Notes: generated by a model not told the origin, from the sequence alone. A stretch of DNA of 64,000 bases from an uncultured Gammaproteobacteria bacterium (GCA_963976865.1 CAXBLY010000002.1:22917-86916), one strand, 5' to 3'; numbered from the stretch's first letter, positions 30,404 through 64,000 are shown. Translations and numbers: made by a program.

Positions 30404-30434
30404 TATATATTCCTCTTTAATGATTGATTCAGAA

Positions 30435-31187: not shown

Positions 31188-31207
31188 GATTATTCCTTTT
31201 ATCAGTA

Positions 31208-32368: not shown

Positions 32369-32379
32369 AAAAGCTCTCC

Positions 32380-33306: not shown

Positions 33307-33412
33307 TAGCTAACTCCTTGCAAATTATTATTCATGTGCATTATCGAGTAACAACCAATGTTGAACTCAGGCTATTACTCGATATGCATGATTAAGTTAA
33401 ATCCCAGTCGCC

Positions 33413-46845: not shown

Positions 46846-46935
46846 ACATGTATTCGGGTAAAAAGTGTACTATCTGGAATAGAAAATCCACCTATAATAG
46901 CAGGCAAGTGCCCAGGCTTCGTAGTAATAATTTAA

Positions 46936-47493: not shown

Positions 47494-47494
47494 A

Positions 47495-48196
47495 TCAGTA
47501 CTCACGTTGCAGTAAAAAGTTTTTGTAATAACGAACATCGTCGCGTATAAGCTCCAGATCTATAGATTGTGTATATTTAATCTGATCAAACGCATCTGAA
47601 AACTGGTCCGCATTCGTTGCTGCCACACCATTTACCGATACAATCAAATCTCCCTTCTGCAAATCAAGTTTTTTGGAGACATTTTCTTCAAGCACACTTT
47701 TAACCTCAAACGCTGCCAGCTGCCCATCTTGCATATGAGGAACCAAATTAAACGTGGTGATGAAATTTTCGGGCTTATCAAAAAATTGTTTGCGGTCTTC
47801 GGTGGATATATTTACAGGAGGTGACCATACATCTTTGCCTGCTGTTGATGTTATATCAATGCTTAAGCTTCTTAATGTCAAGGTAAGCACCTGGTCATTA
47901 CAGTAGAAACTAACGCGGCTACGACGAACATAATCCAGCACACAGCCAGCAACTACGTCACCGACTCGCAATACTAATTCACGATGCTTTTCTTTATCAA
48001 ACAGAACGGCAATTGAGTCAGGGTTATTCAGGACAACCCCGCTTAATTCAAAATTGGCTAATTTAAGTGGCGTACTCCAGACTGCCGGGACCGAAACGGC
48101 AAATGACAGGATCGCAACAGATATCCAGCGCAATCTAGACTGGATAAAAATCGATCGGATAATTAAATGTAAATACTGGAACATCTTCAGATCCAA
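47495..48196 (-). CDS. Membrane-anchored PDZ-domain protein (GspC-like architecture), last gene of the TonB array
   Basis: N-terminal TM helix WISVAILSFAVSVPAVW and a C-terminal PDZ-like block GDLIVSVNGVAATNADQFSDAFDQIK. The start is uncertain because the ORF overlaps the tonB 3' end. Confidence 0.4.
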   Translation of the reverse strand: MDLKMFQYLHLIIRSIFIQSRLRWISVAILSFAVSVPAVWSTPLKLANFELSGVVLNNPDSIAVLFDKEKHRELVLRVGDVVAGCVLDYVRRSRVSFYCNDQVLTLTLRSLSIDITSTAGKDVWSPPVNISTEDRKQFFDKPENFITTFNLVPHMQDGQLAAFEVKSVLEENVSKKLDLQKGDLIVSVNGVAATNADQFSDAFDQIKYTQSIDLELIRDDVRYYKNFLLQREY

Positions 48197-49121
48197 AATT
48201 GATCAGTTTTACGCGTTGAATTAGTTTCTGCTCGAGTTCCGTATCAGCCAGTTCACTACTGACGATATATACTTCAGTCACCTTCCCTGAAGGCGCAATA
48301 GAAATTTTTAGGACGACTTTTCCCTGCAGGTCAGGTGATGATCTAAGTGCCCGATTGTACATACTGAATATCGCACTCTTATTTCTATCAAATGTGATCT
48401 GTATTTTTTCCAGATCACGCTGCGCCGCACGTCCAACACCATTGTCACTGCCTGTGCCTGAACCGCCCTCACCAGCCCCCAGACCAGCAGGTCCAGAAAC
48501 ACGGCTCGCTGTTCTGCCGCCCAGTCCGGTACCCGATACGTCCCGGCTCAATGCAGCAGTATTGATACCACCACTGCCTTTACCTGTGTTCTTTGTTACC
48601 AGAGAACGTTCAATTCTTGAAGCCGAGCCACCACTATTACTGAGTGACCGCTCACCTAAAGTTTGCGAATTTGTTTTTTTACTGATGTCAGCCAATTCAC
48701 TTTGAAATGCCAGCAAACCCGAGGCCGCTGCCACTTCTTTTGCAGATTTTTTAGGTGGCGCAGGTGCTACCTTTTTCTGAGGGACAGGCTTATTAGCTGC
48801 TTTAGCAACTTTCTTTTCCTGTACTTTCTTTATTGCTTTTGGTTTTGTAGTTTTGACTGGTTTGTTAATTTTCTGAGGCACCACTTTTTTAACAATCGGT
48901 GGAGGTGGTGGAAGCTTTTTTTCAATCAGTATTTTTACAACGCGCTTTTCCTGTAATTCCTCAACTGGTTTTTCTTTTTCTGGCAAGGGCAGGAATGGGA
49001 CAATCAGGGTGAGCACAAGACAAGTCATCGTGACACGATTCAATACGCGTCTGAATCTTGTTTTCTCTACGGTTGACACTTCCCATGGGAGGCGCCATGA
49101 ATATACGGCTGCTGCTGTCAT
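48135..49121 (-). CDS. tonB: TonB-family energy transducer; start probably at the internal Met (MTAAAVYSW...)
   Basis: N-terminal TM anchor, a long Pro/Lys-rich spacer (KKLPPPPPIVKKVVPQK...KPVPQKKVAPAPPKK) and a C-terminal TonB domain (VVLKISIAPSGKVTEVYIVSS...FNYPIDF). Confidence 0.75.
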   Translation of the reverse strand: MTAAAVYSWRLPWEVSTVEKTRFRRVLNRVTMTCLVLTLIVPFLPLPEKEKPVEELQEKRVVKILIEKKLPPPPPIVKKVVPQKINKPVKTTKPKAIKKVQEKKVAKAANKPVPQKKVAPAPPKKSAKEVAAASGLLAFQSELADISKKTNSQTLGERSLSNSGGSASRIERSLVTKNTGKGSGGINTAALSRDVSGTGLGGRTASRVSGPAGLGAGEGGSGTGSDNGVGRAAQRDLEKIQITFDRNKSAIFSMYNRALRSSPDLQGKVVLKISIAPSGKVTEVYIVSSELADTELEQKLIQRVKLINFGSEDVPVFTFNYPIDFYPV

Positions 49122-49125
49122 AACT

Positions 49126-49629
49126 CTAACTTGCTTTAGTAGATTCTCTTTGAATAACGGATAATGATATCTGCTCAAAACCAGCACTTGAACAAATCTG
49201 CATGACTTGCTTTATCAGGCTGAATGGCACTTCTTTATCACCCATTATAGTAATTTCCTTTTTCTCACCTTCTTGCACATCTGCCTGAACTTTTAGCATC
49301 TCTTCCTGAAGTGCCATCTGTAGCTTTTGCACATCCGCTTTCTTATTTCCATTGATATCACCTGAACTGACAACTTTCTGACCCTGCAGGCTTATATCTT
49401 CATTATTAAGCATTAATACTACAGAAACACGCGGCTTTTTCTCAGCCATAGACTGCGGCATTTCAATGCCTTTAGCATTTGGTAGTACAGTCGGGTCCGA
49501 CGCATTCACCAGTAAGAAAAATACCAAAATGGTAAATATATCCATCAGCGAGACAATATTAAATGGTGCCTGCTTTTTAGCGCGATCATGATTGCGCTGC
49601 ATTCTTTGTACTGTTTTTTTGCCACGCAT
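49126..49629 (-). CDS. exbD: ExbD/TolR-family biopolymer transport protein (copy 2)
   Basis: 167 aa, single TM (FNIVSLMDIFTILVFFLL), ExbD fold. Confidence 0.8.
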   Translation of the reverse strand: MRGKKTVQRMQRNHDRAKKQAPFNIVSLMDIFTILVFFLLVNASDPTVLPNAKGIEMPQSMAEKKPRVSVVLMLNNEDISLQGQKVVSSGDINGNKKADVQKLQMALQEEMLKVQADVQEGEKKEITIMGDKEVPFSLIKQVMQICSSAGFEQISLSVIQRESTKAS

Positions 49630-49631
49630 AA

Positions 49632-50138
49632 TTATCTTCCTGCTGTATACACTGGAGCATCACCCACAGCGATATCAGGAAACAGATCTGCAAATACTGT
49701 TTCCCCATCCTTAACTACTTCTGCCGCCCTGACTGAGTCCATAATCTGAACAAGCACATCGTAGGTAATGTCTGGTTCTAACAGTATTGTTGCATTTTGA
49801 ATATCCTGATACCTGGTTTTCAGGCCTTGTAAATATTCGTTAAGTGCTGTTAATTCGTAGCCTTGGTCGCCGTTTTTAATTGATTTGAGTACGCCCTTGT
49901 TACGATCCTGAACACGCAATGAATTCTCGCGTACAACAATTTCAAGCTCTAATGTTTTAACGTTATTTTTGACAACATCAGATTTGGCTGGCAAATCCAG
50001 TTCCAAAATACTTATTTTAGAAAACACCGCTGTAATCAGCAGGAAAGGAACCAGAATTACCATCAGGTTCATGAAAGCAGTAATACTTAGCTCTGCTTCT
50101 TCCCTGTTGCGTCTTCTACTATGGCGTCTATATATCAT
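49632..50138 (-). CDS. exbD: ExbD/TolR-family biopolymer transport protein (copy 1)
   Basis: 168 aa, single TM (ITAFMNLMVILVPFLLI). Confidence 0.8.
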   Translation of the reverse strand: MIYRRHSRRRNREEAELSITAFMNLMVILVPFLLITAVFSKISILELDLPAKSDVVKNNVKTLELEIVVRENSLRVQDRNKGVLKSIKNGDQGYELTALNEYLQGLKTRYQDIQNATILLEPDITYDVLVQIMDSVRAAEVVKDGETVFADLFPDIAVGDAPVYTAGR

Positions 50139-50155
50139 AATGACTTATATCAATT

Positions 50156-50812
50156 TTATGCTTCAGCCTGTGCCTGCTTTCGCGCACTGACTGCAATGGT
50201 ATTCAGTACTTTGACTGAGGCCATCTCAAGGCTATCAACAATTTCTGTAGTCTTGGTCTGTAACCAGGAATGCAGAAGCAATAATGGAATACCTACCATC
50301 AGTCCAAATGCGGTTGTATTCATCGCAACCGAGATACTTGATGAGAGCAAATCTGCTTTTTCTGCAGGGCTTGCCGCGGATATTGCTGTAAATGCATCGA
50401 TTAGACCGATAATTGTTCCAAGCAGACCTAACAGGGTTGCAACATTTGCAAAAGTCGCCAGGTAATGAGTCCGCTTTTCCAGTTTAGGAACCACTTCCAT
50501 TAAACCTTCTTCCATTGCCGTTTCAATATCATCTCTACGGCGTGACGTTTGCGCACTTGCAATGCCATAGCCCATAATTCGGCTGATAGCACATTTGGAT
50601 TTTTCAGCAAAATTCATTGCTTCATTCATATTGCCACTGGCCAGTACTGTCTGAATTTTTTTCCAGGCAATCTGATTTTTAATTCGTGTGGAAGAAAGAT
50701 AAATATATCTTTCAATGGCGATCGCCAAACCTATGGCTAACACAAACACGATTGGGATCATGAAAATACCGCCGGACTGGAAGAATGTTACAAAAGACTC
50801 ATACATATTCAT
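50156..50812 (-). CDS. exbB: MotA/TolQ/ExbB proton-channel protein
   Basis: 218 aa, three TM helices, conserved C-terminal GLMVGIPLLLLHSWLQ. Confidence 0.85.
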   Translation of the reverse strand: MNMYESFVTFFQSGGIFMIPIVFVLAIGLAIAIERYIYLSSTRIKNQIAWKKIQTVLASGNMNEAMNFAEKSKCAISRIMGYGIASAQTSRRRDDIETAMEEGLMEVVPKLEKRTHYLATFANVATLLGLLGTIIGLIDAFTAISAASPAEKADLLSSSISVAMNTTAFGLMVGIPLLLLHSWLQTKTTEIVDSLEMASVKVLNTIAVSARKQAQAEA

Positions 50813-50842
50813 TGGGACTCCCTATTACTTAATATCGTAAAT

Positions 50843-51103
50843 TTATTTTCTACTTTGCTGATAGAAATCTACTTTGCGTTGAAAAACTTCCTTATCTACC
50901 GGCTGTATATATTCGTTAATATGTCGCTGCAGAAAAAAGTCGCCCTCACCTGGCAGTGATGCTTTCCATGGAACAATCACCAGACTTTTGGGTAATTCTT
51001 TATTACCAATAATTGAAATACCATTAAGCTCCTGCACATTCTGATCTGCAAATGACATACTTTGCATGAATATAAAGATCATAATTAGCAAGAAGATTTT
51101 CAC
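50843..51103 (-). CDS. Small secreted hypothetical protein (86 aa)
   Basis: Signal peptide MKIFLLIMIFIFMQSMSFA. Sits between the TPR lipoprotein gene and exbB. Confidence 0.4.
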   Translation of the reverse strand: MKIFLLIMIFIFMQSMSFADQNVQELNGISIIGNKELPKSLVIVPWKASLPGEGDFFLQRHINEYIQPVDKEVFQRKVDFYQQSRK

Positions 51104-51119
51104 TATCCCAACTCCATCA

Positions 51120-51752
51120 CTATTTTATTTGACTCTCTCTACGTGATAAATCACTTATCCAGGCTATGACTTGTTTATCGTCATTTTTTTCTATTTCTTG
51201 ATATGCCTGATAATGTGATTTTGCACAAACTATTTTCTGTAAATACAGGTCACATAAAATAGCTAAATTTAGATGAGCGTTTGCGTAATTCGGATACTCG
51301 GCCAGAGCATTTTTATACATACTCTGCGCCTCCTCAAAAGCGCCTTTTTCACGTTTAATAATGCCTGCCTGATTTAATGCATAAGGATTCTTTGGATTCA
51401 GCTTAACGGCAGTTTCAATAGCATGATCGGCTTTATCAATTTCGCCCAGTTTTCGGTAAGCTATCGCGATATTCACCCAGGGGCCTGAAGCACGCGGTTC
51501 TTTTTCTGCAACCTGATTGAATATTTCGATGGCCTGCAAATAATCTTCTGCAGACATTGCTTCCACACCATATCCAAACTGCTGTTCAACAGACGCAGAA
51601 ACTTTATAATTCTGCTTTACAACTATTCTGGAACTTTCATCTTTATTGTTGGCAACTGAAGATACATTACTGGGCGCATTTGCACATGCCGTTAACAGCA
51701 ATACAATGAAACCTGAAATAATATATTTAGTATTAATGAATTGTCTCCACAT
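51120..51752 (-). CDS. TPR-repeat lipoprotein
   Basis: 210 aa, lipobox LLTAC, TPR units (AIAYRKLGEIDKADHAIETAVKLNPKNPYALNQAG...). Confidence 0.6.
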   Translation of the reverse strand: MWRQFINTKYIISGFIVLLLTACANAPSNVSSVANNKDESSRIVVKQNYKVSASVEQQFGYGVEAMSAEDYLQAIEIFNQVAEKEPRASGPWVNIAIAYRKLGEIDKADHAIETAVKLNPKNPYALNQAGIIKREKGAFEEAQSMYKNALAEYPNYANAHLNLAILCDLYLQKIVCAKSHYQAYQEIEKNDDKQVIAWISDLSRRESQIK

Positions 51753-54549
51753 AAGCTTCTGATTTTTCTGTTCTCGCGTATCGCGCTGGTACTAATTCAC
51801 CTAATTCACGCAGGCTTTCTTTAATCCATTTGTTATACACACCATCCACTGTTCTGCGTGCATTCAGTTCAAACAGGTCAATCGCCTGCTCCTCAAACGG
51901 GAATGCCTGTTCTTCCAGTAAAAACTCATACTGCGCCAGTTCTTCTTGAGAAAGTCCGGGAGGCCGATCAGACTGCATTAATGCGCGACTAAAGTCGTAG
52001 TAAATCAAGCCTGAGTAGTAGGTTGCTGACGTAGTCACCTCTTCTACCTTGTATGCACCTGCCTGTTCAAACGCTAGCAATGCTCTTTCCATGAGCGTTT
52101 TCTTCGCTTTCAGACTTGTTTTCAATGGGATTTTCAAGCGGCTGGCATTAAATACCGTGTATTTAGGAATTGCCAACTGAAGTGATGCATTAGCAGCAAT
52201 AAATTTCATCCTGGCAGTACTGGTAGAACCTGCTACAGCCTCAGTCTTGATGATATCTTCCCGCCATTGCTTGACTAACTGGGTCTCATTTCTTGCTAGA
52301 TACAAATCTACAAGTGATTGACGAACTTCCAATGCAGCTTCATAAGGCTTGGGAAATCTCTTGATATAATTCTTGTAGATTTCAATAGCACGATAATCAT
52401 CTTTTTCTTTTGCATATAAATCTGCTGCCACAAGACTTGAAGTACGCTGGGTTTCTTTATCATTTGCATCATCCAGACTAATCCTTTCGTATTCTTGCGC
52501 AGCCAGTATATTGCGTTGATCTTTTTCGTATACCAGTGCTAATTTATGCGTAATTGAGGACTGTTCTTCATGATCAGGGAAACGGCTTCTGAAATCTTCC
52601 AGCACAACCGCGGCACGTGACCATTGCTCTGACTTAAGCAGTAATGTTGCTGCATCATATTGTGCTGCCGGTCGAATATCAGAACCAGGAACAATTCGGC
52701 CAACTCGCAAATAATGCTCTACCGCTATATCTGTTTCACCTGCCAACTGACTGGCTTCTCCCTGTTTGTAAATAGAAGCGGCTAGTTTTTCTTCAAGATT
52801 TTTACGCTCTTTAGCATCATTTCCAACTAATAGAATTGCCTGTTGGTAAGCAACCTCTGAACCAGGAAAGTCATTTAGCTCGAAAGAAGAGTGCGCCTTA
52901 ACAGTCCAGGCACTTTTACGAAGTTTGATATCGCTATCAGCAAACTTTTCAACCAGCAAACTTGATGCCTGAATAGCCCTGCTGTAATCTTTAATTGAGA
53001 ATAGATCTTCAGCTGCTTTTGTTAACGCCACAGATGCTTGTGGATGTAACGGGAATTTATTGGCAAATTTAAATGTACTATCAATCTGCCTGGATTTAAT
53101 TTGTGCATTAACACTTTTGTCTTTAGTTGCAGTCAACCAGTCATTAAACGCAACCAGAGCTGCATAACCAGCCTCTGAATCTTTTGCATGCGCCGGATAG
53201 TGATATGCTGTCTTTTCAAATTCAACAACTGCATTTTCATATTCTTTAGTTTCAAACCAGATATCTGCCAGCAGGAAATTCATATGCGCCGAATGCGGAT
53301 CTTCGGGAAACGATGCTATGTAGGCCTGATACCAGCGGGTTGCTTCAATATAGTCTGGCTTCTTCTTGGATTTCTGGGCAACGGCATGATAGTACTTGGC
53401 TAAATCGATGATATTGGATTTCAGATAATCAACGACATGTGACGCATCTTCAATCTGGTTATGTACCCAGTATTCAGAGTTAATATGATAATTTTCAACA
53501 AACTGTTTTTTTGCATTCAGTACTTCAGACGGGAATTTACCTTTCTTGAACGCATCAATGGCCCTGATCTGGAAATCTGGCGCCTGCGCATTGAACTGAT
53601 TATGCTTAACAAACTCTCTAAATGTATTGGCAGCATCACTATAGCGCTGCTTTTCCAGATACTGCACCCCCAGCCGATCATAGATCAAGGCTTCGTATGG
53701 TCGCCTTCCGTGACCATTAAAATAACCCGATATTTCACTGGCACCGCCCAAATAACCATAACTTAATCCCAATGCGCGCAGAGAGTCGTCTAACAACTCT
53801 TTTTCTGGACGCGTCAGCGCTTCTATATCCTTATCAACATCATTCATAATCATGGTATCGAGAAGCGCAATAAACGAATGCAATCCGACATCATAATCAA
53901 GCCTCTTGAATTGCGTCCAACCCTGTTTATAAAGTGCATGCCGATAGAATCGACTGTCCTTGCCCAGCTCGATGACTTCAGCATAAGCCAGTTCAGCTCG
54001 CTTGTATTTCTTATCTACAAACAGTGTCTCGCCACGGCGAAACTGCGCTTCCACGTAATAATCAGAATCCGGAAACTTTTCAATTAATCTGTCTAGACTA
54101 TCCAGCATTTTCTCGCGCTGATCTGCCGCTTCATATGCCCGTGATAATTGATACAGGACAACATCGTTTAATTGATAGTCTGATTGCTCTAGCAACAAGT
54201 ATTCATATAACTCGATAGTCTCTTTATAATTTATATCAGTGGTTGTGAATTTTGATGCAACTTCAGGACTTGATACATCGACTGCCTGCAGGTCTTCATT
54301 TTCCTCTAGCCTTAAATCACCCAACCTGCGTATTACTTCTGGCGAATCTTTTTCCTGATCTTCATCAACCAGCAACTCACGATAGCTATGTATGGCTTTC
54401 TTACGGCTACTCTCAACGGGAATGTCGTTTTCCACGTCGACTTTCTTACGCTCAAGGTCTTCAATCGTATAATAGGACCCACCGCCCCAGCCACAAGCCT
54501 GTATCATTAGAATCAGCGCATAAACGCTGCAATAACGTATATGCTTCAT
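51733..54549 (-). CDS. Large TPR-repeat lipoprotein (938 aa)
   Basis: Lipobox MIQACG, then multiple TPR-like helical repeats throughout. Confidence 0.6.
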   Translation of the reverse strand: MKHIRYCSVYALILMIQACGWGGGSYYTIEDLERKKVDVENDIPVESSRKKAIHSYRELLVDEDQEKDSPEVIRRLGDLRLEENEDLQAVDVSSPEVASKFTTTDINYKETIELYEYLLLEQSDYQLNDVVLYQLSRAYEAADQREKMLDSLDRLIEKFPDSDYYVEAQFRRGETLFVDKKYKRAELAYAEVIELGKDSRFYRHALYKQGWTQFKRLDYDVGLHSFIALLDTMIMNDVDKDIEALTRPEKELLDDSLRALGLSYGYLGGASEISGYFNGHGRRPYEALIYDRLGVQYLEKQRYSDAANTFREFVKHNQFNAQAPDFQIRAIDAFKKGKFPSEVLNAKKQFVENYHINSEYWVHNQIEDASHVVDYLKSNIIDLAKYYHAVAQKSKKKPDYIEATRWYQAYIASFPEDPHSAHMNFLLADIWFETKEYENAVVEFEKTAYHYPAHAKDSEAGYAALVAFNDWLTATKDKSVNAQIKSRQIDSTFKFANKFPLHPQASVALTKAAEDLFSIKDYSRAIQASSLLVEKFADSDIKLRKSAWTVKAHSSFELNDFPGSEVAYQQAILLVGNDAKERKNLEEKLAASIYKQGEASQLAGETDIAVEHYLRVGRIVPGSDIRPAAQYDAATLLLKSEQWSRAAVVLEDFRSRFPDHEEQSSITHKLALVYEKDQRNILAAQEYERISLDDANDKETQRTSSLVAADLYAKEKDDYRAIEIYKNYIKRFPKPYEAALEVRQSLVDLYLARNETQLVKQWREDIIKTEAVAGSTSTARMKFIAANASLQLAIPKYTVFNASRLKIPLKTSLKAKKTLMERALLAFEQAGAYKVEEVTTSATYYSGLIYYDFSRALMQSDRPPGLSQEELAQYEFLLEEQAFPFEEQAIDLFELNARRTVDGVYNKWIKESLRELGELVPARYARTEKSEAYVETIH

Positions 54550-56438
54550 TCGTCTTCTCCAATAATTTCCGGATTATCAATGGTTGCCTGATCATAAGCC
54601 TGTGCCAATGCCAGCTTGGCTTGCGCACGATAACTCTTCATCACCAGCTTGCGTTTAACCAGTTCACGCACAGCAAGCTTTTCGATCAGCGTGCTTTGTT
54701 TTTCATAAGCAACAACTAAGCGTGGAAGTGCGTCTTCAATTCTCTGTCTGATTTCGTCTATGCGATACTGGAATCCACCAAAGCCAAAACTTGCCACCTG
54801 ATCAACGGTGCCAATAGATTTTTCAACGTCAGCCATATTAGTAATTTCTTCTTCAATGGCTCTGAGCTCTGTTTTAGCTCTCCATTGTCTTTCTGCATAT
54901 TGTTGTGAAACTTCCCAGTAAATTCGACCTTTAAGCATTTCAAGTCGCTTCAAGCTGTCTGAATACTGTTTGTTTGATGGATCCTGTTCACTTAATTTTG
55001 TTAACTTATTATAAAGTCGATCAATGCGTTTGATTTTCAGCAGTTCATCATCATCGACAAATGCCAGTACATTTTGATTCGATTCTGCATCATTATATGC
55101 TTCAGAAAGCTCAGCATATTTTGCCTTAAGACGCTTCAATTGCGACCTCTTCAGCGTTTTGCCTGCTGCAGGCGCTGTTTGTTCATAGCGTGCTTTACGC
55201 GTATCAAGCATGGTGTTGTATACATGAATGTTGTCTAGCCAGTTCTGAAGATTTTCCTGAAGAAAAATCAGGTCACGGAAATTTTTAACAGCTTCGTGGA
55301 ACTGATGATCAGCCATCAGTTCCGACAGGTATCGCATTTCCGGTACTGAAGGAATACTTTTTAACGACCAGAACCAGCCTAATAGTGGTTCTTCTTTAGT
55401 TTTGCCAATTAACGCGGTGATAAATTTACCTTGCTCGATCGAAGCAATTGATTCCGTTAATTTGCCAGTTTCAATCTGATATGAATTGATTGCATCTTCA
55501 TAGGACTTTACGGCGCGACCATTCAAACCAAGTTGCCCATACCCGTAAGCGATCGCCAGTAATCCTTCCTGGACTGGTGTCGTTGTTAATCTGCGATCTT
55601 TTAATTCCAGCCAGGGAGTTAAAGCTTTCTCATAATGCCCCTGTTCACTGTGCGCCCACCCCATGGTCAACAGGGAAATATCTGAATAAAGACCACTTAG
55701 GCGAACATCTTCAAGATAGCCTTGTGCTTTTTCCGGTTCATTTTTTAATAATGCCAGCCCTGCTACGAGATTGGACTTATCTCTTAGTGTCAATTCATTT
55801 GAATTGCGTATCTTTTGTTTGCTAGCGTTTTTTAAACTACTGACTCCATCTTCCACATTACCATTTCTAATATGAGCAATTCCAAGATTATGCAATGCAT
55901 ATGGTTTATGTGATTTTGGCGGCTTCCATCCATCAAGTACTGCAATCGCTTTCTCGGGCTGACCTATATCCAGGTATACCTGACTTTTTAATAATTTTAC
56001 ATCGCTGAAAACATCTTCATGGACCGCACCTTTAATGTTTTCCACGTATTGCGCTGCGTTCGCCAGATAACCACGCTGATAAGAAATTTTTGCCAGATAA
56101 TAATAAGCTCTGTTTTTAACAGCATCATCGGAGTTTTCTTCAAGAAGTCTAGCAAATATTTTTCCGGCTTCATTATGCATTCCATAGGACAGCTCTATCC
56201 CGCCTAATAGCAACTCGTCATCAGGGCGGTGATTAGCCACTCGATTAAGTTGCTGCGCTGCCAGTAAATGAGTTATTGAAGTAAAATAATCATCCTGAAA
56301 AAAATGAAACAGCACTTCGCCATAGTGAAGATCCTTGACAGTATTGATCACTATCTTTTCTTCAGCATACACTGACGCATTCGCAAACAAACAGGCGACT
56401 ACGAAATATTTAATCAGTCTGGACAACATGGTTATCAT
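54546..56438 (-). CDS. Secreted TPR plus coiled-coil protein (630 aa)
   Basis: Signal peptide (FVVACLFANASVYA), N-terminal TPR region, C-terminal long heptad-rich region. Confidence 0.55.
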   Translation of the reverse strand: MITMLSRLIKYFVVACLFANASVYAEEKIVINTVKDLHYGEVLFHFFQDDYFTSITHLLAAQQLNRVANHRPDDELLLGGIELSYGMHNEAGKIFARLLEENSDDAVKNRAYYYLAKISYQRGYLANAAQYVENIKGAVHEDVFSDVKLLKSQVYLDIGQPEKAIAVLDGWKPPKSHKPYALHNLGIAHIRNGNVEDGVSSLKNASKQKIRNSNELTLRDKSNLVAGLALLKNEPEKAQGYLEDVRLSGLYSDISLLTMGWAHSEQGHYEKALTPWLELKDRRLTTTPVQEGLLAIAYGYGQLGLNGRAVKSYEDAINSYQIETGKLTESIASIEQGKFITALIGKTKEEPLLGWFWSLKSIPSVPEMRYLSELMADHQFHEAVKNFRDLIFLQENLQNWLDNIHVYNTMLDTRKARYEQTAPAAGKTLKRSQLKRLKAKYAELSEAYNDAESNQNVLAFVDDDELLKIKRIDRLYNKLTKLSEQDPSNKQYSDSLKRLEMLKGRIYWEVSQQYAERQWRAKTELRAIEEEITNMADVEKSIGTVDQVASFGFGGFQYRIDEIRQRIEDALPRLVVAYEKQSTLIEKLAVRELVKRKLVMKSYRAQAKLALAQAYDQATIDNPEIIGEDE

Positions 56439-56465
56439 TTAAAGGTAAGCTCTCTGCCAGATCAC

Positions 56466-57038
56466 CTATTGCCACTCTTTAATGACAAATTCAGGTTGTT
56501 TCTTGATAGACCTGTCTGAAATCTTGAGCTCCAGATATTTTGCACCCAGGCCTTTTTCTACTTTTATATCTGCACCCCGGCGATAATCACGTCCGTTCGG
56601 TCCCTTGCCAACAAGTATCGCCACTAATTCATGTTCACCACTGGTGACGTTACCAACATACAGTTGCTGAACACCGCCACGGTGTAATGCATCAACTTCA
56701 CGTTTGGTATACAAATAGTTTGCAACAATCTTGTCATCCAGTTTTAACTGCACAGAGTCAAGATCAAAGAAATCACCAACATCCACTGACACGAATACAG
56801 CTATTTGTGTATTTGCAGGGAAAAGCAATTCTTCCTCTAAAATATACAGATCGCGATTAATCTCAAGAACCTCTTTCTTAAGCGACTGGACTCGCCCATC
56901 CAGTGATTTAAACTCATCATCAAGATTTTCGCCTGTTTGAGTTGCAGAGATTACACTTCCTGTAATCAGCATTGAAATTATTAATACCAGTAATTTTGTA
57001 GGCATACCCACCTCCTTTAAATTATTCTTTCTCATCAA
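56466..57038 (-). CDS. Secreted hypothetical protein (190 aa)
   Basis: Signal peptide, short coiled-coil, then a beta-rich domain. No motif recognised. Confidence 0.4.
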   Translation of the reverse strand: MMRKNNLKEVGMPTKLLVLIISMLITGSVISATQTGENLDDEFKSLDGRVQSLKKEVLEINRDLYILEEELLFPANTQIAVFVSVDVGDFFDLDSVQLKLDDKIVANYLYTKREVDALHRGGVQQLYVGNVTSGEHELVAILVGKGPNGRDYRRGADIKVEKGLGAKYLELKISDRSIKKQPEFVIKEWQ

Positions 57039-57039
57039 C

Positions 57040-58176
57040 TCAATATCTCACCGAAAAGAACAGTTGCAATACTGCCGCATCAAATGAATATGGATCATCG
57101 GTAATGACAGAAAGGTCTTCTATCCCGCTGTAGTCGTCATATTGCGAATCAATATATTCTGCAGAAAAATTCAACGTGCCATTATTGAATCTTGAATATT
57201 CATCAAAAATCCTATAGCTGACTTTGGCGCCAATTGAGTAACTATCAAAAGTGCTTAATTCTTTATCTCTGGCCATGAAATTTCGCGCGACCGAAAAATT
57301 ATTACTATAAAAGTCTGCTGCATCCTGAGTGTAATAACGTAAATACAAATCGGTCAGCCAACGATCACCAATATATTGCGAATAAGTGAAATCGACTGTA
57401 TGAGCAACTATGTCCCAGGTGTCTCTAAAATATCGATAACCCAGAGAAGTTGCAGCTTTGAAATCCCAGTACTTGGTCACGCTGAGTGCCGTTGCCTGGC
57501 TAGACCTTGTACCCGGATACACTTCGGAACCCAAACCCTGCGGAACATTCCCAATAATGACAAACCGGTAGGGATTATTGAGGTAACCATCTTCAAGCGT
57601 TGCCTCATAAGAGAGATCTGCTCTGATTTTACTGGTTAATACCTGTGATAAAGAAACACGATATTGAGATCGTTTTAAATCTTCCTCAAATTCAGGCGCA
57701 TCAACACGCTTGATAGTATCCCAACCATGAGTAAAGCCCAGGCCTATGGTAGTTAAATCACCAAACATGTCATGAGAAATATCAAAACCTGCTGTATTGG
57801 CCTCATAATCATTCTCATCACTATAAGTATAGAATGCGCCGATTACTGTATTATCATGCAGGTAGTTACCACCCAGCGTAAATTCATCTCTGTCTTCAGT
57901 ATATTTGCTTGCGCCTGCCAGCACGTCGGGCGACGCGCCAGTAATATTGTCCTGATGATATTTTCCGTACACTGAAAATTTTTGTGCAAAGCTTTTGCGT
58001 ACCAGTACAGTGACACCATCAACCTCTACACCACCACCATCGTAATAATGGTATTGAACATCTGCCCTGTCTTCAGGTAACTGGGCAGCAAATGCTGGTT
58101 GCCTGATCAGTGATACAGCAGCAATGGCGCTTATAATTAGCGCGTATATAGCAAATTGTAATTTAGTTACAGCCAC
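57040..58176 (-). CDS. DUF3570-like outer-membrane beta-barrel protein; probable GTG start at 58176
   Basis: The tracked ATG ORF (57040..58326) would overlap the DUF4266 gene by 164 nt. A GTG at 58176 preceded by AAGGAA gives MAVTKLQFAIYALIISAIAAVSLIRQPAFAA, a clean signal peptide. The body has alternating beta-strand patterns with C-terminal ...LQLFFSVRY. DUF3570 assignment from memory only. Confidence 0.5.
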   Translation of the reverse strand: MAVTKLQFAIYALIISAIAAVSLIRQPAFAAQLPEDRADVQYHYYDGGGVEVDGVTVLVRKSFAQKFSVYGKYHQDNITGASPDVLAGASKYTEDRDEFTLGGNYLHDNTVIGAFYTYSDENDYEANTAGFDISHDMFGDLTTIGLGFTHGWDTIKRVDAPEFEEDLKRSQYRVSLSQVLTSKIRADLSYEATLEDGYLNNPYRFVIIGNVPQGLGSEVYPGTRSSQATALSVTKYWDFKAATSLGYRYFRDTWDIVAHTVDFTYSQYIGDRWLTDLYLRYYTQDAADFYSNNFSVARNFMARDKELSTFDSYSIGAKVSYRIFDEYSRFNNGTLNFSAEYIDSQYDDYSGIEDLSVITDDPYSFDAAVLQLFFSVRY

Positions 58177-58393
58177 AACCACTTCCTTGTGCCGATGCTG
58201 CGCCTTTAGCACCTTCTCTGGTTTCATAGGTGTGTTGTCTGAACGAGCTAAACACTGCATCACGATCCGGATCCATAATAGGGTCTGCCAAATGCTCTCG
58301 TTCATATGGTGCCACCCACGGTTCAATCGGCTTTATACTGCATGCAGTTAAGCCAATAACAATGAACATTAACAATAAAGATTTAATTATCAT
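58163..58393 (-). CDS. DUF4266-like small lipoprotein
   Basis: 76 aa, lipobox GLTAC, C-terminal GSGCGCN. DUF4266/DUF3570 pairing recalled from memory. Confidence 0.5.
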   Translation of the reverse strand: MIIKSLLLMFIVIGLTACSIKPIEPWVAPYEREHLADPIMDPDRDAVFSSFRQHTYETREGAKGAASAQGSGCGCN

Positions 58394-58396
58394 GAT

Positions 58397-58912
58397 TTAT
58401 TCATATTTCAATTGCTTGATCTGCTGCTGATAAAGACTCAGGTAACTTTCTTTATAACCACGGTGCATATATCGAATCTCGCCGTTTCTATCGACAATAA
58501 TAGTCATGGGCATAGCGTCAATATCGTATAGTTTGCTTACCTGTTTGGACTGGTCGAATAATATTGGGAAATCAATCCCCAGTTTTTTTGCCAGTCTTAT
58601 GGCTTTTTCCGGTTCTTCATCAATGTTGACTGCGAGCAGTTCAAAATCATATTCGTCATGCAGTCCCTTTAGCTCAGAAAGTTTTGGCAATTCCTGCTGA
58701 CAAGGACCACACCATGATGCCCAGAAATTAATAAGCACAACTTTGCCACGATATTCACTAAGTTTTCGGTTATCACCCTGATCACTCTTTAAAGTAAAAT
58801 CAGGTGCTGTCTTGCCGATCAGTTCATTTCTGGCAACTGAAGTACCCACGCAAATCAGACACAGGAGTCCTGTAATAACAATTAAAATATTTTTAATTTC
58901 TATACTTTTCAT
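58397..58912 (-). CDS. TlpA/ResA/CcmG-like periplasmic thiol:disulfide oxidoreductase
   Basis: 171 aa, signal anchor, active site WASWCGPC, AhpC/TSA-TlpA fold. Confidence 0.8.
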   Translation of the reverse strand: MKSIEIKNILIVITGLLCLICVGTSVARNELIGKTAPDFTLKSDQGDNRKLSEYRGKVVLINFWASWCGPCQQELPKLSELKGLHDEYDFELLAVNIDEEPEKAIRLAKKLGIDFPILFDQSKQVSKLYDIDAMPMTIIVDRNGEIRYMHRGYKESYLSLYQQQIKQLKYE

Positions 58913-58932
58913 GACGCCTCCACATACATAAT

Positions 58933-59571
58933 TTAGAAGAACACGCCCAGGTTGAATGAGGCTTCCAGGTTATGTGTGAATTCATTTTCTCCCAACAGAT
59001 CTGTTTCATAGATATAATCTCTAAAATCAAATCGTGCTGATAACCAGTCCGTTGGCAGAATTTTCAACCCTATTCCAAAGTGGTATGCAAACTCGTCCTC
59101 TTCAATGAACTCAACATTACCAACACCTGCGAGTACATAAAAAGTACTACTCAACGCGATGTCACGCCCCAGAAACACTTCGCCCGGCAATATGTTGTAC
59201 CCTATTGATAATGCGTAATATTCAACGTCCTGCGTTTCCTGGGGGAACAATGGCAGACCTAGCCGACGAAATGACTCATCTTTAACCTCAGATTCGCCGT
59301 ATGTCGCTTCAACAAAGAAGTCTTCGGTGACGTGATACGCTGCACGAATTCCAATCACCGGTTCAGACCCAAAATCCTCGACATCCAGTACTCCATAGAA
59401 TGCTGAGATCTCGAAGTCTTCAGTATCAATTTTCGGCACCACGATATCTCTACGATGAATATCTGGCTTAATCACCTGTTCCTGTTCTTGCTGATCTTCA
59501 TCTTCCTGCGCAAACACCATGCCGGTGTTGATGCCTATCAGCATGATGAGAAATATTGCAATCCATTTCAT
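58933..59571 (-). CDS. Outer-membrane beta-barrel protein (OmpW/OmpA-barrel-like)
   Basis: 212 aa, signal peptide, acidic linker, amphipathic beta strands, C-terminal ...NLGVFF. Confidence 0.5.
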   Translation of the reverse strand: MKWIAIFLIMLIGINTGMVFAQEDEDQQEQEQVIKPDIHRRDIVVPKIDTEDFEISAFYGVLDVEDFGSEPVIGIRAAYHVTEDFFVEATYGESEVKDESFRRLGLPLFPQETQDVEYYALSIGYNILPGEVFLGRDIALSSTFYVLAGVGNVEFIEEDEFAYHFGIGLKILPTDWLSARFDFRDYIYETDLLGENEFTHNLEASFNLGVFF

Positions 59572-59590
59572 AATTTATCCCTTCCCTTCT

Positions 59591-60376
59591 TTAAAAGAAA
59601 AATGCCACGCCGCCTGTTATTTCATCAAAATCATCGTTTTCATCATCGTTTGATAAAACAACGTAGCGACGATAATCAGCACGTATAAAAAAACGTTCAG
59701 TCAAATAAAATCTTGCACCGATCCCTGCATTGGCAAGATCAGAATCTGTCTCTTCGGCATTTACCAGTGTTGCTCTTGGAGTATTCTCAAAACGACCATA
59801 ACCAATTGTAAAATTTGGACTGACACGCCATTTCGGAAATGGTGTTGAGACAAGATTGAGGCTGTAAACATCAGAGCTGGAAAAGTCACCAGCAACTTCA
59901 CCATAGGAGAATTCCAGCATGATATTTTCTGTAAATTTGTAACCCAGACGTGCGGTAATAAACGGATCACCTGAGAAATCACCTCCAGACACACCAAACT
60001 CGATTCGTCTTCTCAAGTAGTCACTGACTAATACATCACGAAAACTCTTGTTCGAGCCTGCCTCAGTCAACGTACGCTCCATTTGTGAACGTTCAACCCA
60101 ACCGGTTTTATTGTGATCTGTTCTGACTTTAAACCAGTCTGTTTTACGCTTGATTATTTCAACCCATTCGTGACGATCCACCACATGGAAAATGGGAAAT
60201 CCACGTCCTGGACCTGTATGCATTTCAATATATGGATCAGCAACCTGTACGCTTTGATACTCTTTATCTGCGTAGGCGACCTGATTGACTGTGATGAACA
60301 TCACAAAGGCAAATATCACATACTTTAAGTGAGTTATTGTTGAGATTTGAGTAAAGCTTTCCATGCCTGATTTCAT
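59591..60376 (-). CDS. SH3b-like domain fused to an outer-membrane beta-barrel domain
   Basis: 261 aa, signal peptide. DPYIEMHTGPGRGFPIFHVVDRHEWVEIIKRKTDWFKVRTDHNKTGWVE is bacterial-SH3-like. The C-terminal barrel ends ...GGVAFFF. Confidence 0.5.
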   Translation of the reverse strand: MKSGMESFTQISTITHLKYVIFAFVMFITVNQVAYADKEYQSVQVADPYIEMHTGPGRGFPIFHVVDRHEWVEIIKRKTDWFKVRTDHNKTGWVERSQMERTLTEAGSNKSFRDVLVSDYLRRRIEFGVSGGDFSGDPFITARLGYKFTENIMLEFSYGEVAGDFSSSDVYSLNLVSTPFPKWRVSPNFTIGYGRFENTPRATLVNAEETDSDLANAGIGARFYLTERFFIRADYRRYVVLSNDDENDDFDEITGGVAFFF

Positions 60377-60386
60377 TTCAAATTAT

Positions 60387-60911
60387 TTATGGGGCGCAGC
60401 TTGCCAGATCAGCAGCTGATGGACCTGTTCCTGTTAGGACAGTACAATTTACCGGACACGAACCATTGTTTGTTCCTGCCCAATTAGCAATTTCTTGATA
60501 ACAAGTCGCCGCTGTACTTGCAAAAATATCGCCACCACCATGTGGCCCTACGGATGCGACTCCGGAATCACCAACTAAGGGTTCGGCAAGTAATTTGCTC
60601 TGCGAGACACTGGCAGGATTCACAAAGGCTTGTGCAGAATTAAAATTAAATGCCAGGTCAGCAGCAGTTACCGGGTTTTGAATCAGGATAAATGCACCAC
60701 CTGATCCACCAGAAGCATGACAGGCGCTCGCTGCGCAGCTGACATTTGATGCACCTATTGGCCCTTGCAAGATAGGACTAATACACAAATCAAAAATGTT
60801 GCTACATAAATCTGCAACACTACCGGGATCATCCTCGGTAGAAACACTGTCGCATCCAGTTAAAATGATTAGCGCCGCAGCAAGCGACGCAAACCGCCGC
60901 TTCTTGTTCAC
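60387..60911 (-). CDS. Gly/Ala/Ser-rich Cys-containing lipoprotein (174 aa)
   Basis: Lipobox ILTGC and 10 Cys, including SCAASACH, a C-x4-CH arrangement of the kind used by some c3-type cytochromes. Confidence 0.45.
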   Translation of the reverse strand: MNKKRRFASLAAALIILTGCDSVSTEDDPGSVADLCSNIFDLCISPILQGPIGASNVSCAASACHASGGSGGAFILIQNPVTAADLAFNFNSAQAFVNPASVSQSKLLAEPLVGDSGVASVGPHGGGDIFASTAATCYQEIANWAGTNNGSCPVNCTVLTGTGPSAADLASCAP

Positions 60912-60938
60912 GGTAACTTCTCCGTAACTATTTAATAT

Positions 60939-63929
60939 TTAAATACAAGTTGGGTTATTTGCAGCACCCATGCTAATCCAGTTCAATATCACGCCATAAG
61001 TGCTATTCGGACTAGTGTCTACTAATACCGGTTGAGTGGGCCCCGCTGGATTAGCAGGACTCACTAACACCTGTGGGTGAGGCAAGTTAGGAGCAACATT
61101 GTCAGAAACTGCTCTTAGCAACAAATCATTGTTAGCCGGTGTACATAGATCGTTAATCATGGAAATAGTGACATTGAAGTCGCCGCCAGGATTACCTGTT
61201 AATACAAACCGGTTTTGTCCACTTGATGGATTCGCACTGTTGTCAGCATCTTCACCAGGCGCATGACATGACTGACAATCGGCCATTAATCGTGGATGAA
61301 CTGTCGAATTAAACAGTGACTGACTTACACCTACGTTTGAAAGCAGGTCTGCTTTAACTTTATAGACGCCATCAACCAGCTCAAATGGATCATTAATATA
61401 TTGAGCACCGATATCCACCCATTCAGTCACCAGACGCTTTTCAGATGCGTTCATAAACAGACTATGGTCTAACGTGCCAAGCACATGTTCATTATCAGCG
61501 CGTAATTTTCTATGATAAATCGTCTCAATGAGATGACTGGTACGTGAACTATTGGCAGAACCACCCACAGACACTAGCGGTTCATTACGCAGGAATACAA
61601 CTCCTCCATCCTGTACTACAGGTGGTAATGGCTGACCAAAAGCATCTTTCTCAAATGTTCCAATTAGCAGTTGATCATATGAAATGATTCTGCCACCCAA
61701 ACCACTCAGACCACCTTCTAAAGTTAATCCCGCTGAAACAGCCTCGTTCGCCAGCAATGCATTGTTATGGCAATTTACACATGTACATCCACCATCATTA
61801 ATTGCACCTGCTGCACTACAGGCACCCAGCACATCATCACGTGCCTTGTCCCAGATCGGCTGGATATGATCTTCGTAGTTGATTCTTATACGTCCATTAG
61901 GTGCGACCGGTGGAGGCGTATCCAGATCATCATATGAAATGATTTGCTGCTGTATACCACCGATGCTGACCCCTGCCCACACAGGTGTATAAGTTATATT
62001 GGGTAATAGGTCACCCGACCCATTCGCTGGATCATTACGACTCTTAGTATCAGCCATTGTTTCACCCGCTACGACATCCCAACCTTTAGTAGCAATATAT
62101 TCATTATCAGCTTGGCTACCTGCGATTGGCGTTGTATTTAATGGTTCTGTTGCACGCCTTGGTGAATGGCATCCATTACATGTACGTACTTCACCGGGAC
62201 GCACCTGCAACCAGTTTGTATGCGTTTGAAATGCACGCCCTTCTCCATCCAGTACAGTCATGGCGACTGCCGTGTCCGCTGGTACTTTTACACGGAATGA
62301 TCCGTCAGGCTCGATCTGCTGGTATCCAAGAATTTCCTGCATCTCAAATTCACTTTCACCAATCGCATCCATGATCATGCCCGGTGGCGTTGGAATTGCT
62401 CGGGTCACACGGACAAAACGCGCAACACGATTTGCAAACTCTGGAGTACTGGGATCTTTCATTAACAGCAGATCCGGCTCTCCTGTTGCAGTTTTAGGAA
62501 TGGTTTCACCAGGTGCCAATACCGAGTCGCCCATAATATCCAGTGAATCAGTGTCGTAAACACTGCGAACATTCAGCACACCCATACCTGTACCACCTAA
62601 ACCATTCGCTTCAGAAGCCAATGCGGGATCAGGGAATTTATCCCCGATAATCGCAGGTGTATCACCCAGACCACGTGGAAGTATTGCAATTGGATCAACC
62701 AGCGCTTTACCCGGTGCTGCCAGATGCACAGGACGCAATGTTCTATTCCCCAGGTCCATCATATATATACTGTATTCCGGAGTTCCCTGATCAGGTTCGG
62801 TAACTCCCGTCATAGGGTCCGTTACCATGGCCGGATTTGGTGGCGCAGGCCTGAATGAGACTAATGCACGGTTTGTCCCATCCCACAAAGGATAAGGTGT
62901 TGTGAAACGTCCGCCGGGAGAAAACTCATCATCAAAGTTAACTGTGAGATTTGTTAATTGAACTTTAGTTTGCCCATTGCAGTTCTGCGGAAGTCCTGGT
63001 CCTGGTTCACACGCATCAGAATAATTTTTAACATCCAGCAGCATTATCGCACCCGCTTCATTAGTACCTGATAAAGGCATCAATGAGGTCATCACACGAC
63101 CATCCTGCATTTCTCGAGGATGTAAAAAACTGTTCCCTGGACTAAATGCTCCGTACTCTACAAACAGGTTTGTTCCGTCAGGGTTTGCAAAAAATACCGG
63201 GAAATGATTTCTGTTTGCGAAATGATCCCAGCGTGAATACATAATTTCACCCGTCTTAAGCACAGTGGCATTACGATCATGACTCTGGTTAAACGATATT
63301 TGCGTGATTTCCTGAGTCACAGGATCAAACACATGCAGAGCAATCGTCTGCTCACGCTCATACTCATCCAGATATGTATATGGCTCTACATTTTCTTCAG
63401 CCATTTTTTGTTGCGTTGTTTTTTGGCGGCTGGATGAAAATACGATTCGTCCATCCGGCAAATAGGCGGGGTCTACATCATCCGCTAATTCAGCAACGGC
63501 TGTATCCTGAATTAACCGCGTCAGCGTGTTTGAATTCAGATTAATTTCCCAGATATTAAACGTTGCATCATTCGGTCCACGCATGGCAAACACCACTTTG
63601 CTTGCATCAAAGTTGACTTCAGGATCAGACACGTCACCCTGACCCTGGGTATAGGCGGAAGTTAAGTTGGTAGATTCCGAAAGTGGAGCAGATACATTTT
63701 TCATGTATAAATCACCACCCGGTGAAAAACGTACACCATCAGTAGGGTTACCAAGGGCAGCGGTATTTCTTTGCGCATACACAATTGGGAAGTCACCATT
63801 AATGATCACACCCTCTTCGCCTGCGCCCCCGCCACAGCCTGACATTGAAGTAGCAATAGCCCCACCGATTGCCCATATACTTATGCGTAAACATTTAGCC
63901 CATTTAACTGCCATGACCGACTTCTCCAA
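60939..63929 (-). CDS. Giant lipoprotein (996 aa) with TolB-like (PD40) beta-propeller repeats and three CxxCH motifs, putative c-type haem lipoprotein
   Basis: Lipobox SMSGC. Repeated propeller-blade signatures are present (RFSPGGDLY, YLPDGRIVFSSSRQ, ANPDGTNLFVEYG, FSPGGRFTTPYP, IEPDGSFRVKVP). Three spaced haem-attachment-type motifs are CNGCH, CVNCH and CQSCH. Confidence 0.55.
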   Translation of the reverse strand: MEKSVMAVKWAKCLRISIWAIGGAIATSMSGCGGGAGEEGVIINGDFPIVYAQRNTAALGNPTDGVRFSPGGDLYMKNVSAPLSESTNLTSAYTQGQGDVSDPEVNFDASKVVFAMRGPNDATFNIWEINLNSNTLTRLIQDTAVAELADDVDPAYLPDGRIVFSSSRQKTTQQKMAEENVEPYTYLDEYEREQTIALHVFDPVTQEITQISFNQSHDRNATVLKTGEIMYSRWDHFANRNHFPVFFANPDGTNLFVEYGAFSPGNSFLHPREMQDGRVMTSLMPLSGTNEAGAIMLLDVKNYSDACEPGPGLPQNCNGQTKVQLTNLTVNFDDEFSPGGRFTTPYPLWDGTNRALVSFRPAPPNPAMVTDPMTGVTEPDQGTPEYSIYMMDLGNRTLRPVHLAAPGKALVDPIAILPRGLGDTPAIIGDKFPDPALASEANGLGGTGMGVLNVRSVYDTDSLDIMGDSVLAPGETIPKTATGEPDLLLMKDPSTPEFANRVARFVRVTRAIPTPPGMIMDAIGESEFEMQEILGYQQIEPDGSFRVKVPADTAVAMTVLDGEGRAFQTHTNWLQVRPGEVRTCNGCHSPRRATEPLNTTPIAGSQADNEYIATKGWDVVAGETMADTKSRNDPANGSGDLLPNITYTPVWAGVSIGGIQQQIISYDDLDTPPPVAPNGRIRINYEDHIQPIWDKARDDVLGACSAAGAINDGGCTCVNCHNNALLANEAVSAGLTLEGGLSGLGGRIISYDQLLIGTFEKDAFGQPLPPVVQDGGVVFLRNEPLVSVGGSANSSRTSHLIETIYHRKLRADNEHVLGTLDHSLFMNASEKRLVTEWVDIGAQYINDPFELVDGVYKVKADLLSNVGVSQSLFNSTVHPRLMADCQSCHAPGEDADNSANPSSGQNRFVLTGNPGGDFNVTISMINDLCTPANNDLLLRAVSDNVAPNLPHPQVLVSPANPAGPTQPVLVDTSPNSTYGVILNWISMGAANNPTCI

Positions 63930-64000
63930 AACAACTCTGTTTACGTGAACAGAGTCTAGTTATTTATGCTGGCGATTATTGTGGAGAGAAGCAGTGTGAA

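Follow-up and report, generated by a model that had tools for sequence, protein, structure and literature searches.

The 64,000-nucleotide (nt) stretch of DNA analyzed here (the window; GCA_963976865.1 CAXBLY010000002.1:22917-86916, from an uncultured Gammaproteobacteria bacterium) carries on its minus strand the gene of a large lipoprotein related to hydrazine synthase alpha (HzsA) and, next to it, that of a 174-amino-acid (aa) lipoprotein. With a probability of roughly 60%, the large protein is an exported, lipid-anchored, HzsA-related c-type cytochrome rather than a hydrazine synthase, and together with a mono-heme 174-aa protein it makes up the heme arm of a redox module that is conserved and extracytoplasmic. 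Of greatest interest is the gene context: a conserved operon brings together three orphan systems, and no publication was found that links HzsA-like cytochromes, the DUF3570 module, and the Agl/Glt core complex. An earlier note on this DNA had described a lipoprotein in which a TolB-like propeller is combined with three CxxCH motifs, spaced 120 to 180 aa apart, beside a smaller lipoprotein with a C-x4-CH motif. Translation confirmed both open reading frames (ORFs), the SMSGC lipobox, and the motifs, and the spacing of the three CxxCH motifs was measured as 133 and 168 aa. The features of the two genes, in which heme motif denotes a predicted attachment site, are as follows.

60939..63914, minus strand: gene of the HzsA-related, predicted three-heme lipoprotein, 991 aa from the ATG at 63914
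63834..63836, minus strand: lipobox Cys32 (SMSGC), lipid attachment site, +2 residue Gly
62670..63797, minus strand: N-terminal TolB-like beta-propeller, approximately aa 45-420
62166..62372, minus strand: HZS_alpha middle domain, aa 520-588 (Pfam PF18582, E value 4e-19), the C-terminal end of which is heme motif 1
62166-62180, minus strand: heme motif 1, CNGCH, counterpart of HzsA heme αI
61374..61916, minus strand: heme-2 domain, approximately aa 672-852, counterpart of the bis-His heme αII domain of HzsA
61767-61781, minus strand: heme motif 2, CVNCH, within the heme-2 domain
61464-61466, minus strand: conserved distal His822, within the heme-2 domain
60942..61373, minus strand: extra C-terminal heme-3 domain, aa 853-996, no HzsA counterpart
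61263-61277, minus strand: heme motif 3, CQSCH, within the heme-3 domain
61077-61079, minus strand: His951, within the heme-3 domain
60387..60911, minus strand: 174-aa lipoprotein, stand-alone paralog of the heme-3 domain, GTG start after the same GGAGAAG as the large gene, lipobox LTGC
60717-60737, minus strand: C-x4-CH motif of the small lipoprotein, CAASACH
60540-60542, minus strand: invariant His124 of the small lipoprotein

Residue numbers of the large protein follow the 996-aa ORF that spans 60939..63929 on the minus strand from a TTG at 63929, and the key positions were confirmed by translation. The ATG at 63914 is the likelier start, since a GGAGAAG ribosome-binding site (RBS) precedes it and the entry of public gene callers is the identical 991-aa sequence, and the TTG start is probably wrong.

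PF18582 (HZS_alpha) is the single significant Pfam match of the large protein (69.3 bits against a gathering cutoff of 26.6), it is carried by all 120 best homologs, and one homolog bears the UniRef name "HzsA-related protein." In a profile search, HzsA of "Ca. Kuenenia stuttgartiensis" (5C2V chain A) was the only significant PDB sequence match, with seven others at E values of 0.08 to 1. The AlphaFold2 model of the large protein (predicted local distance difference test [pLDDT], 79.3; predicted template modeling score [pTM], 0.83; 60 homologs in the alignment) also ranked 5C2V_A first in Foldseek, with an E value of 7.5e-31 over 933 alignment columns and TolB next, which bears out the link to anammox systems suggested by the earlier note. 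The three-domain architecture of HzsA was found in the same order, from the six-bladed propeller through the middle domain with heme αI to the C-terminal domain with heme αII, at a sequence identity of approximately 16%. In the profile alignment, motif 1 falls on the heme αI motif and motif 2 on the heme αII motif (KCAMCH), and His822 aligns with the distal His of HzsA (His772) in GRLLHNKFL and is predicted to ligate heme 2. The HzsA sequence stops before aa 853-996 in the alignment, and motif 3 sits on that extension. The same note had counted at least five SP(D/G)G-type propeller blade signatures; a strict regular expression run over the large protein found none, and six loosely defined ones can be picked out by eye (SPGG twice, DPAYLPDG, NPDG, MQDG, and LWDG).

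The motifs are strongly conserved. All 120 closest database proteins contain exactly three CxxCH motifs, and the nine motif residues and the lipobox Cys are invariant in an alignment of 60 orthologs. Among 131 full-length relatives from the best 149 (31 to 50% identity), the lipobox Cys is present in 127; in motif 1, C584 and C587 occur in all 131 and H588 in 127; in motif 2, C717 occurs in 128 and C720 and H721 in all 131; and H822 is found in 126. Because motifs 1 and 2 persist in 127 to 131 of these 131 sequences at such identities, and all three motifs are invariant in the 60 orthologs, they are not chance occurrences; the check by ortholog conservation that the earlier note had proposed came out in favor of the motifs. 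Motif 3, His951, and Trp984 occur together in approximately 33 of the 131 representatives, and the remainder lack the entire domain. The absence of the heme-3 domain from about three-quarters of the representatives indicates that the three-heme form is a subfamily of a mostly two-heme HzsA-like family. His199, His570, Met530, Met625, His688, and Trp573 are also strongly conserved among the 131 and are candidate ligands or pocket residues.

Orthologs were found in at least 588 species genomes, mainly of Gamma- and Betaproteobacteria, and when 1.84 billion cluster representatives were searched exhaustively, the superfamily amounted to 3,918 clusters at 50% identity. Proteins of this kind had been called rare, a description that these counts and the existing database name contradict. 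Large, already named in databases, and experimentally unstudied, the family represents a variation on the HzsA design.

The 174-aa lipoprotein is a paralog of the C-terminal domain of its large neighbor. In hhalign, it matches aa 857-988 of the large protein with a probability of 93 to 95% (E values, 3e-7 and 6e-8), and its CX4CH motif falls on CQSCH and its His124 on His951. C59, C64, H65, and H124 are invariant among its orthologs, and C36, C43, C137, C152, C156, and C172 are further conserved Cys residues. The C-x4-CH motif pointed out in the earlier note proved to be conserved: at the position of this gene in 77 loci, CX4CH was found in 65, CxxCH in 3 (Sulfuricaulis, L069, and a "Muproteobacteria" metagenome-assembled genome), and CX5CH in 1, the correct ORF not being recovered in the other 8. 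The swap between CX4CH and CxxCH among orthologs is the pattern expected of a heme attachment variant. CX4CH heme sites are established in tetraheme cytochromes c3. The small gene is absent beside the two-heme relatives at the L085, L086, and L087 loci, which indicates that it co-occurs with the heme-3 domain. The +2 residue after the lipid-modified Cys is Gly in the large protein and Asp (CDS or CDN) in the small protein of close, not distant, relatives, and with these differing sorting residues the two cytochromes may be anchored in different membranes. An internal duplication giving rise to domains 2 and 3 was also considered and is not claimed, the hhalign match between them being weak (40%).

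With its full-length structural likeness to HzsA and its retention of the distal His and of both heme sites (αI and αII), the large protein could in principle be a working alpha subunit of hydrazine synthase, or an enzyme of related N-N or NO/hydroxylamine chemistry, but such an identity is highly improbable. The NCBIfam equivalog NF052339 (hydrazine_alpha) scores 68.4 bits against a cutoff of 800, and the match is confined to aa 526-589. In HzsA, Tyr591 is the ligand of the heme αI iron and the His of CxxCH is on zinc, whereas this Tyr591/Zn arrangement is absent from the large protein, in which CSGCHYGSY reads CNGCHSPRR with S589, P590, R591, and R592 nearly invariant; in addition, HzsA has Ala where the family keeps His570. 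The large protein further differs from HzsA in its lipid anchor, its third heme domain, and its separate paralogous mono-heme partner. Neither the window nor the surroundings of approximately 85 related loci contained hzsBC, whether as separate β and γ subunit genes or fused, and the operon and the hosts are other than those of HzsA. The host genera, among them Thioalkalivibrio, Nevskia, Methylibium, Ideonella, and Rubrivivax, are largely aerobic or facultative, which also speaks against hydrazine synthesis. Hydrazine synthase identity was rejected on the equivalog score, the Tyr591 site, and the βγ partner, and the same negative conclusion has been drawn for other non-anammox homologs (PMC12758564).

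Non-anammox HzsA homologs of clades I to IV have been described from Planctomycetota, Desulfobacterota, and others (PMC12758564, PMC10732223, and PMC11828985). As in the proteobacterial family, these proteins have an HZS_alpha domain, an αI site with the canonical pocket, no Tyr591, and no assigned function; unlike it, they have an adjoining fused βγ homolog and often an FG-GAP protein, and either His772 or the entire αII site is missing from them (PMC12758564). The proteobacterial family keeps the His772 equivalent, has no βγ neighbor, and lies in an ApbE/DUF3570/Glt context. The proteobacterial family is not mentioned in the searched surveys of non-anammox HzsA homologs (PMC12758564, PMC11828985, and PMC10732223).

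The two cytochrome genes open an array of 17 co-directional genes between 63914 and 47495, none separated from the next by more than 30 nt. After the HzsA-like gene and the small cytochrome gene, the order is as follows.

59591..60376, minus strand: SH3 domain fused to a small outer membrane beta-barrel (Pfam SH3_3 and OMP_b-brl), syntenic in approximately 75 loci
58933..59571, minus strand: small outer membrane beta-barrel, TIGR04565 OMP_myx_plus (144.6 bits against a cutoff of 60)
58397..58912, minus strand: TlpA/ResA-like periplasmic thioredoxin with WCGPC (Redoxin/AhpC-TSA in Pfam; ResA of NCBIfam, 120.8 bits)
58163..58393, minus strand: DUF4266 lipoprotein with a C-terminal CGC (CXC; ...GCGCN; PF14086, E value 1.6e-20, 74.2 bits)
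57040..58227, minus strand: DUF3570 protein (PF12094, 135.9 bits) with TGAS and AGAS sites and the C terminus ...FFSVRY
56466..57038, minus strand: conserved secreted protein of approximately 180 to 190 aa, syntenic in nearly all loci, no Pfam match
54546..56438, minus strand: GltC-like tetratricopeptide repeat (TPR) protein, 630 aa, by synteny and homology with Tgr7_0543
51733..54549, minus strand: GltD-like TPR lipoprotein, 938 aa, with YbgF/CpoB-like and BamD-like repeats
51120..51752, minus strand: GltE-like TPR lipoprotein, 210 aa, by synteny and a match in Table S3 of PMC3169522
50843..51103, minus strand: 86-aa secreted protein between the GltE-like and AglR-like genes
50156-50812, minus strand: AglR-like MotA/ExbB protein (Pfam; Table S3 of PMC3169522)
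49632-50138 and 49126-49629, minus strand: two AglQ/S-like ExbD proteins (Pfam; Table S3 of PMC3169522)
48135-49187, minus strand: GltG/TonB-like protein with a transmembrane helix, a Pro/Lys-rich linker, and a weak TonB_C match
47495-48196, minus strand: PDZ protein, last gene of the array

A scan for promoters and terminators over 46800-64000 gave results at chance level and thus no evidence for internal transcription units. Contigs L088 and L089, which align with the window over 9,062 nt with 0 mismatches, extend past it and carry, 193 bp upstream of the array, the end of an apbE gene whose 324-aa product has a signal peptide. In the gap after apbE, a perfect palindrome with a 9-bp stem (ACTCTGTTTACGTGAACAGAGT) lies at 63934-63955, just 5' of the RBS of the HzsA-like gene; it may serve as a terminator or attenuator or be an operator site, and the scan for terminators was at chance level overall.

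With tblastn, the same gene order was found in approximately 80 gamma- and betaproteobacterial loci at 38 to 91% identity, with hosts that include Thioalkalivibrio, Nevskia, Panacagrimonas, Litoribacillus, Sulfuricaulis, Methylibium, Ideonella, Caldimonas, Rubrivivax, and Aquabacterium, and it is also present in Thioalkalivibrio sulfidiphilus. The two-heme homologs, at 35 to 39% identity, still lie beside the genes for the SH3-barrel protein, the outer membrane barrel, TlpA, DUF4266, and DUF3570. Synteny with the flavin/thiol module is obligate, and that with the Tol-like motor is usual. The distant two-heme genes (L085, 504-6148; L086, 2631-8073; L087, 3183-8919) are also flanked by a conserved trio of genes that is missing from the three-heme loci, encoding proteins of approximately 420 to 440 aa, 860 to 890 aa with Laminin_G_3, and 530 to 550 aa, and this trio may be an alternative partner set.

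Part of this array belongs to a class of gene clusters that has been described. Meheust et al. (2021, PMC8238504) reported that DUF3570 is flavinylated by ApbE and counted 543 clusters of ApbE and DUF3570 genes together with thioredoxin-like and DUF4266 genes (227 with and 316 without DsbD), which were defined without reference to cytochromes and have no assigned function. The four components are present here, with the thioredoxin-like, DUF4266, and DUF3570 genes side by side; DUF4266 ends in CXC, and DUF3570 has partly degenerate motifs resembling [S/T]GA[S/T] (TGAS and AGAS). The present array differs in that the genes of both cytochromes and of two outer membrane barrels are inserted between apbE and tlpA, in that no DsbD gene is in view, and in that the Gly of the motif is often substituted. 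A motif scan found no [S/T]GA[S/T] flavinylation motif in either cytochrome, and HZS_alpha/PF18582 was not found in the searched supplementary files of PMC8238504. The C terminus of DUF3570 looks like the signature of an outer membrane barrel, and a PDB sequence search with this protein gave no match.

The earlier note had pointed out a TlpA-like gene four genes away, a position confirmed here as downstream of the large ORF, and had taken it as support for cytochrome maturation, but the gene sits in the ApbE/DUF3570/DUF4266 flavinylation module. On the maturation account, the large protein would be a rare enzyme of anammox or planctomycete type, the apocytochrome cysteines of which are kept reduced for heme ligation by a TlpA/CcmG-like thioredoxin. 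The WCGPC motif, ResA as the best NCBIfam match (120.8 bits), and the apparent co-transcription with two cytochrome genes agree with this account; the ResA score, however, is under the 170-bit cutoff, and a family found in at least 588 species is not rare. In the related loci examined, the TlpA gene is always followed by DUF4266 and DUF3570, with ApbE upstream, and this invariable company indicates that it belongs first to their module, which recurs in 543 clusters defined without cytochromes (PMC8238504). The account is therefore unlikely. No cytochrome maturation genes (Ccm or System II) were found within the 64-kb window.

The second half of the array corresponds to what Luciano et al. (2011, PMC3169522) described in Gamma- and Betaproteobacteria as the Agl/Glt "core complex" (aglRQS plus gltC, gltD, gltE, and gltG) and called unknown in function. 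Table S3 of that study assigns Tgr7_0536-0543 as GltG, AglS, AglQ, AglR, GltE, GltD, and GltC, and the genes 3' of the HzsA-like gene of Thioalkalivibrio HL-EbGR7 have sizes identical to these. The window region 47495-56438 matches Tgr7_0536-0543 and Mpe_A1224-1231 gene for gene and by size, the comparison being with these proteobacterial loci. The full array is present in Methylibium (L061 and L080), the sole betaproteobacterium of that study, which also lists core complexes in Marinobacter, Hahella, Saccharophagus, Teredinibacter, Cellvibrio, Shewanella frigidimarina, and Geobacter. The 86-aa protein occupies the position of the "additional gene" Tgr7_0540 (91 aa), and an unnamed additional gene is present in all non-myxobacterial core complexes (Luciano et al., PMC3169522). 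The adjoining cytochrome/flavin module is not mentioned in that paper, in which the word "cytochrome" occurs 0 times.

With analogs of TolQ, TolR, and TolA in the cluster (ExbB, two ExbD proteins, and the TonB-like protein), a YbgF/CpoB-like TPR protein (91.2 bits against a cutoff of 90.1), small outer membrane barrels, and tight synteny with the motor genes, the large protein might instead serve chiefly as a TolB-like structural adaptor in the periplasm for the Tol-like Agl/Glt envelope machine, with hemes that would be redox sensors or stabilizing cofactors rather than an electron path. This is quite improbable. Only the propeller fold is shared with TolB: the TolB equivalog TIGR02800 scores 22.9 bits against a cutoff of 343, the N-terminal domain of TolB was not identified in the large protein, and TolB has no heme. 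Three or four invariant heme sites and a dedicated flavin/thiol module exceed what sensing would need, and the distant two-heme homologs at L085 and L086 have the redox module and no motor genes in the available sequence of these short contigs.

The reading of the large protein as part of the heme arm of a redox module leads to the following most likely mechanism. Electrons would move among the thiols of TlpA and DUF4266, the flavins of DUF3570, and the hemes at the boundary between the periplasm and the outer membrane, and electron flow along this path and the placing of a substrate are what we infer from the composition of the module. Its parts, besides the large protein and the small lipoprotein, which is predicted to be a mono-heme protein binding its heme through CX4CH, would be a periplasmic ApbE, DUF3570 (probably an outer membrane barrel), the CXC protein DUF4266, the TlpA-like thioredoxin, and two small outer membrane barrels. 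Hemes 2 and 3 and the small cytochrome may form a relay, in which His822, His951, and His124 suggest bis-His ligation, and heme 1, at the interface of the propeller and the middle domain, may face a substrate or a partner. The module would be co-transcribed with the Tol/Exb-like Agl/Glt core complex.

It is possible, though on balance doubtful, that the connection goes further and that the ancestral Agl/Glt core complex has as its working end the HzsA-related cytochrome, its mono-heme partner, and a flavinylated DUF3570 barrel. The complex would then be a motor driven by the proton motive force that serves an outer membrane redox process, not motility, in non-gliding Gamma- and Betaproteobacteria, with a physical coupling of the module to the motor that we infer. 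If true, this would provide the first functional handle on the non-anammox HzsA homologs, the DUF3570 module, and the Glt core complex.

Several observations weigh against the redox module as proposed. The AlphaFold2 model of the large protein has low confidence at aa 722-748 and 892-905, precisely where motifs 2 and 3 lie, the model of the small lipoprotein is poor (pLDDT, 49.7), and no Pfam cytochrome family matches the heme-3 domain or the small protein. In 69 orthologous loci, only x-x-A-S is constant in the DUF3570 motifs and N, S, or T frequently replaces the Gly, so that either the specificity of ApbE may be broader than described or some orthologs may not be flavinylated. Synteny by itself is no proof of cooperation between the Agl/Glt motor and the redox module.

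The lack of a Pfam cytochrome match, like the additional conserved Cys residues of the small protein, would also suit CxxCH and C-x4-CH motifs that form disulfides or metal sites rather than heme sites. This alternative is hardly credible, and the reading as heme sites is well supported, as the His after the second Cys is conserved as strongly as the Cys residues, motifs 1 and 2 align with heme-bearing motifs of the HzsA crystal structure, and CX4CH alternates with CxxCH among orthologs. In the models, the motif 3 domain and the small protein have a helix-CxxCH-helix-helix pattern, with pLDDT values of <50 around the motifs. A Pfam scan at E values up to 10 assigned the small protein to no family and for the heme-3 domain gave only subthreshold matches centered on CxxCH (MtrC/MtrF, CCP_MauG, and cbb3). 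A likeness to the planctomycete PSCyt-type cytochrome domains found no support in the same scan and is not claimed.

HzsA-like sequences are counted as anammox markers in metagenomes (e.g., PMC11828985), and a large proteobacterial family with the architecture of HzsA is a concrete source of false positives. Having neither the βγ partner nor Tyr591, this family is also a comparison point for the evolution of hydrazine synthase. The conserved multi-heme partner narrows the function of DUF3570, DUF4266, the thioredoxin, and ApbE to a thiol-flavin-heme electron path at the outer membrane. The role of the core complex outside gliding bacteria was left open by Luciano et al., and the operon ties the core complex to redox proteins; since the linkage occurs in cultured Methylibium, Thioalkalivibrio, Panacagrimonas, Ideonella, Caldimonas, and Litoribacillus, the question can be tested by genetics.

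Elsewhere in the window, 1173-10020 carries an aliphatic amidase gene (AmiE-like, 719 bits) that adjoins an Urt-like ABC transporter with two UrtA-like binding proteins, both under the UrtA cutoff, and a GvpN-like AAA protein. This is probably a locus for the uptake and hydrolysis of short-chain amides rather than a urea locus. At 29714-34669, the two genes scanned, UrtA (535 bits) and UrtC (441 bits), are both over their cutoffs, and the locus looks like a second transporter, of the urtABCDE urea type, so that the window holds two paralogous Urt-type systems.

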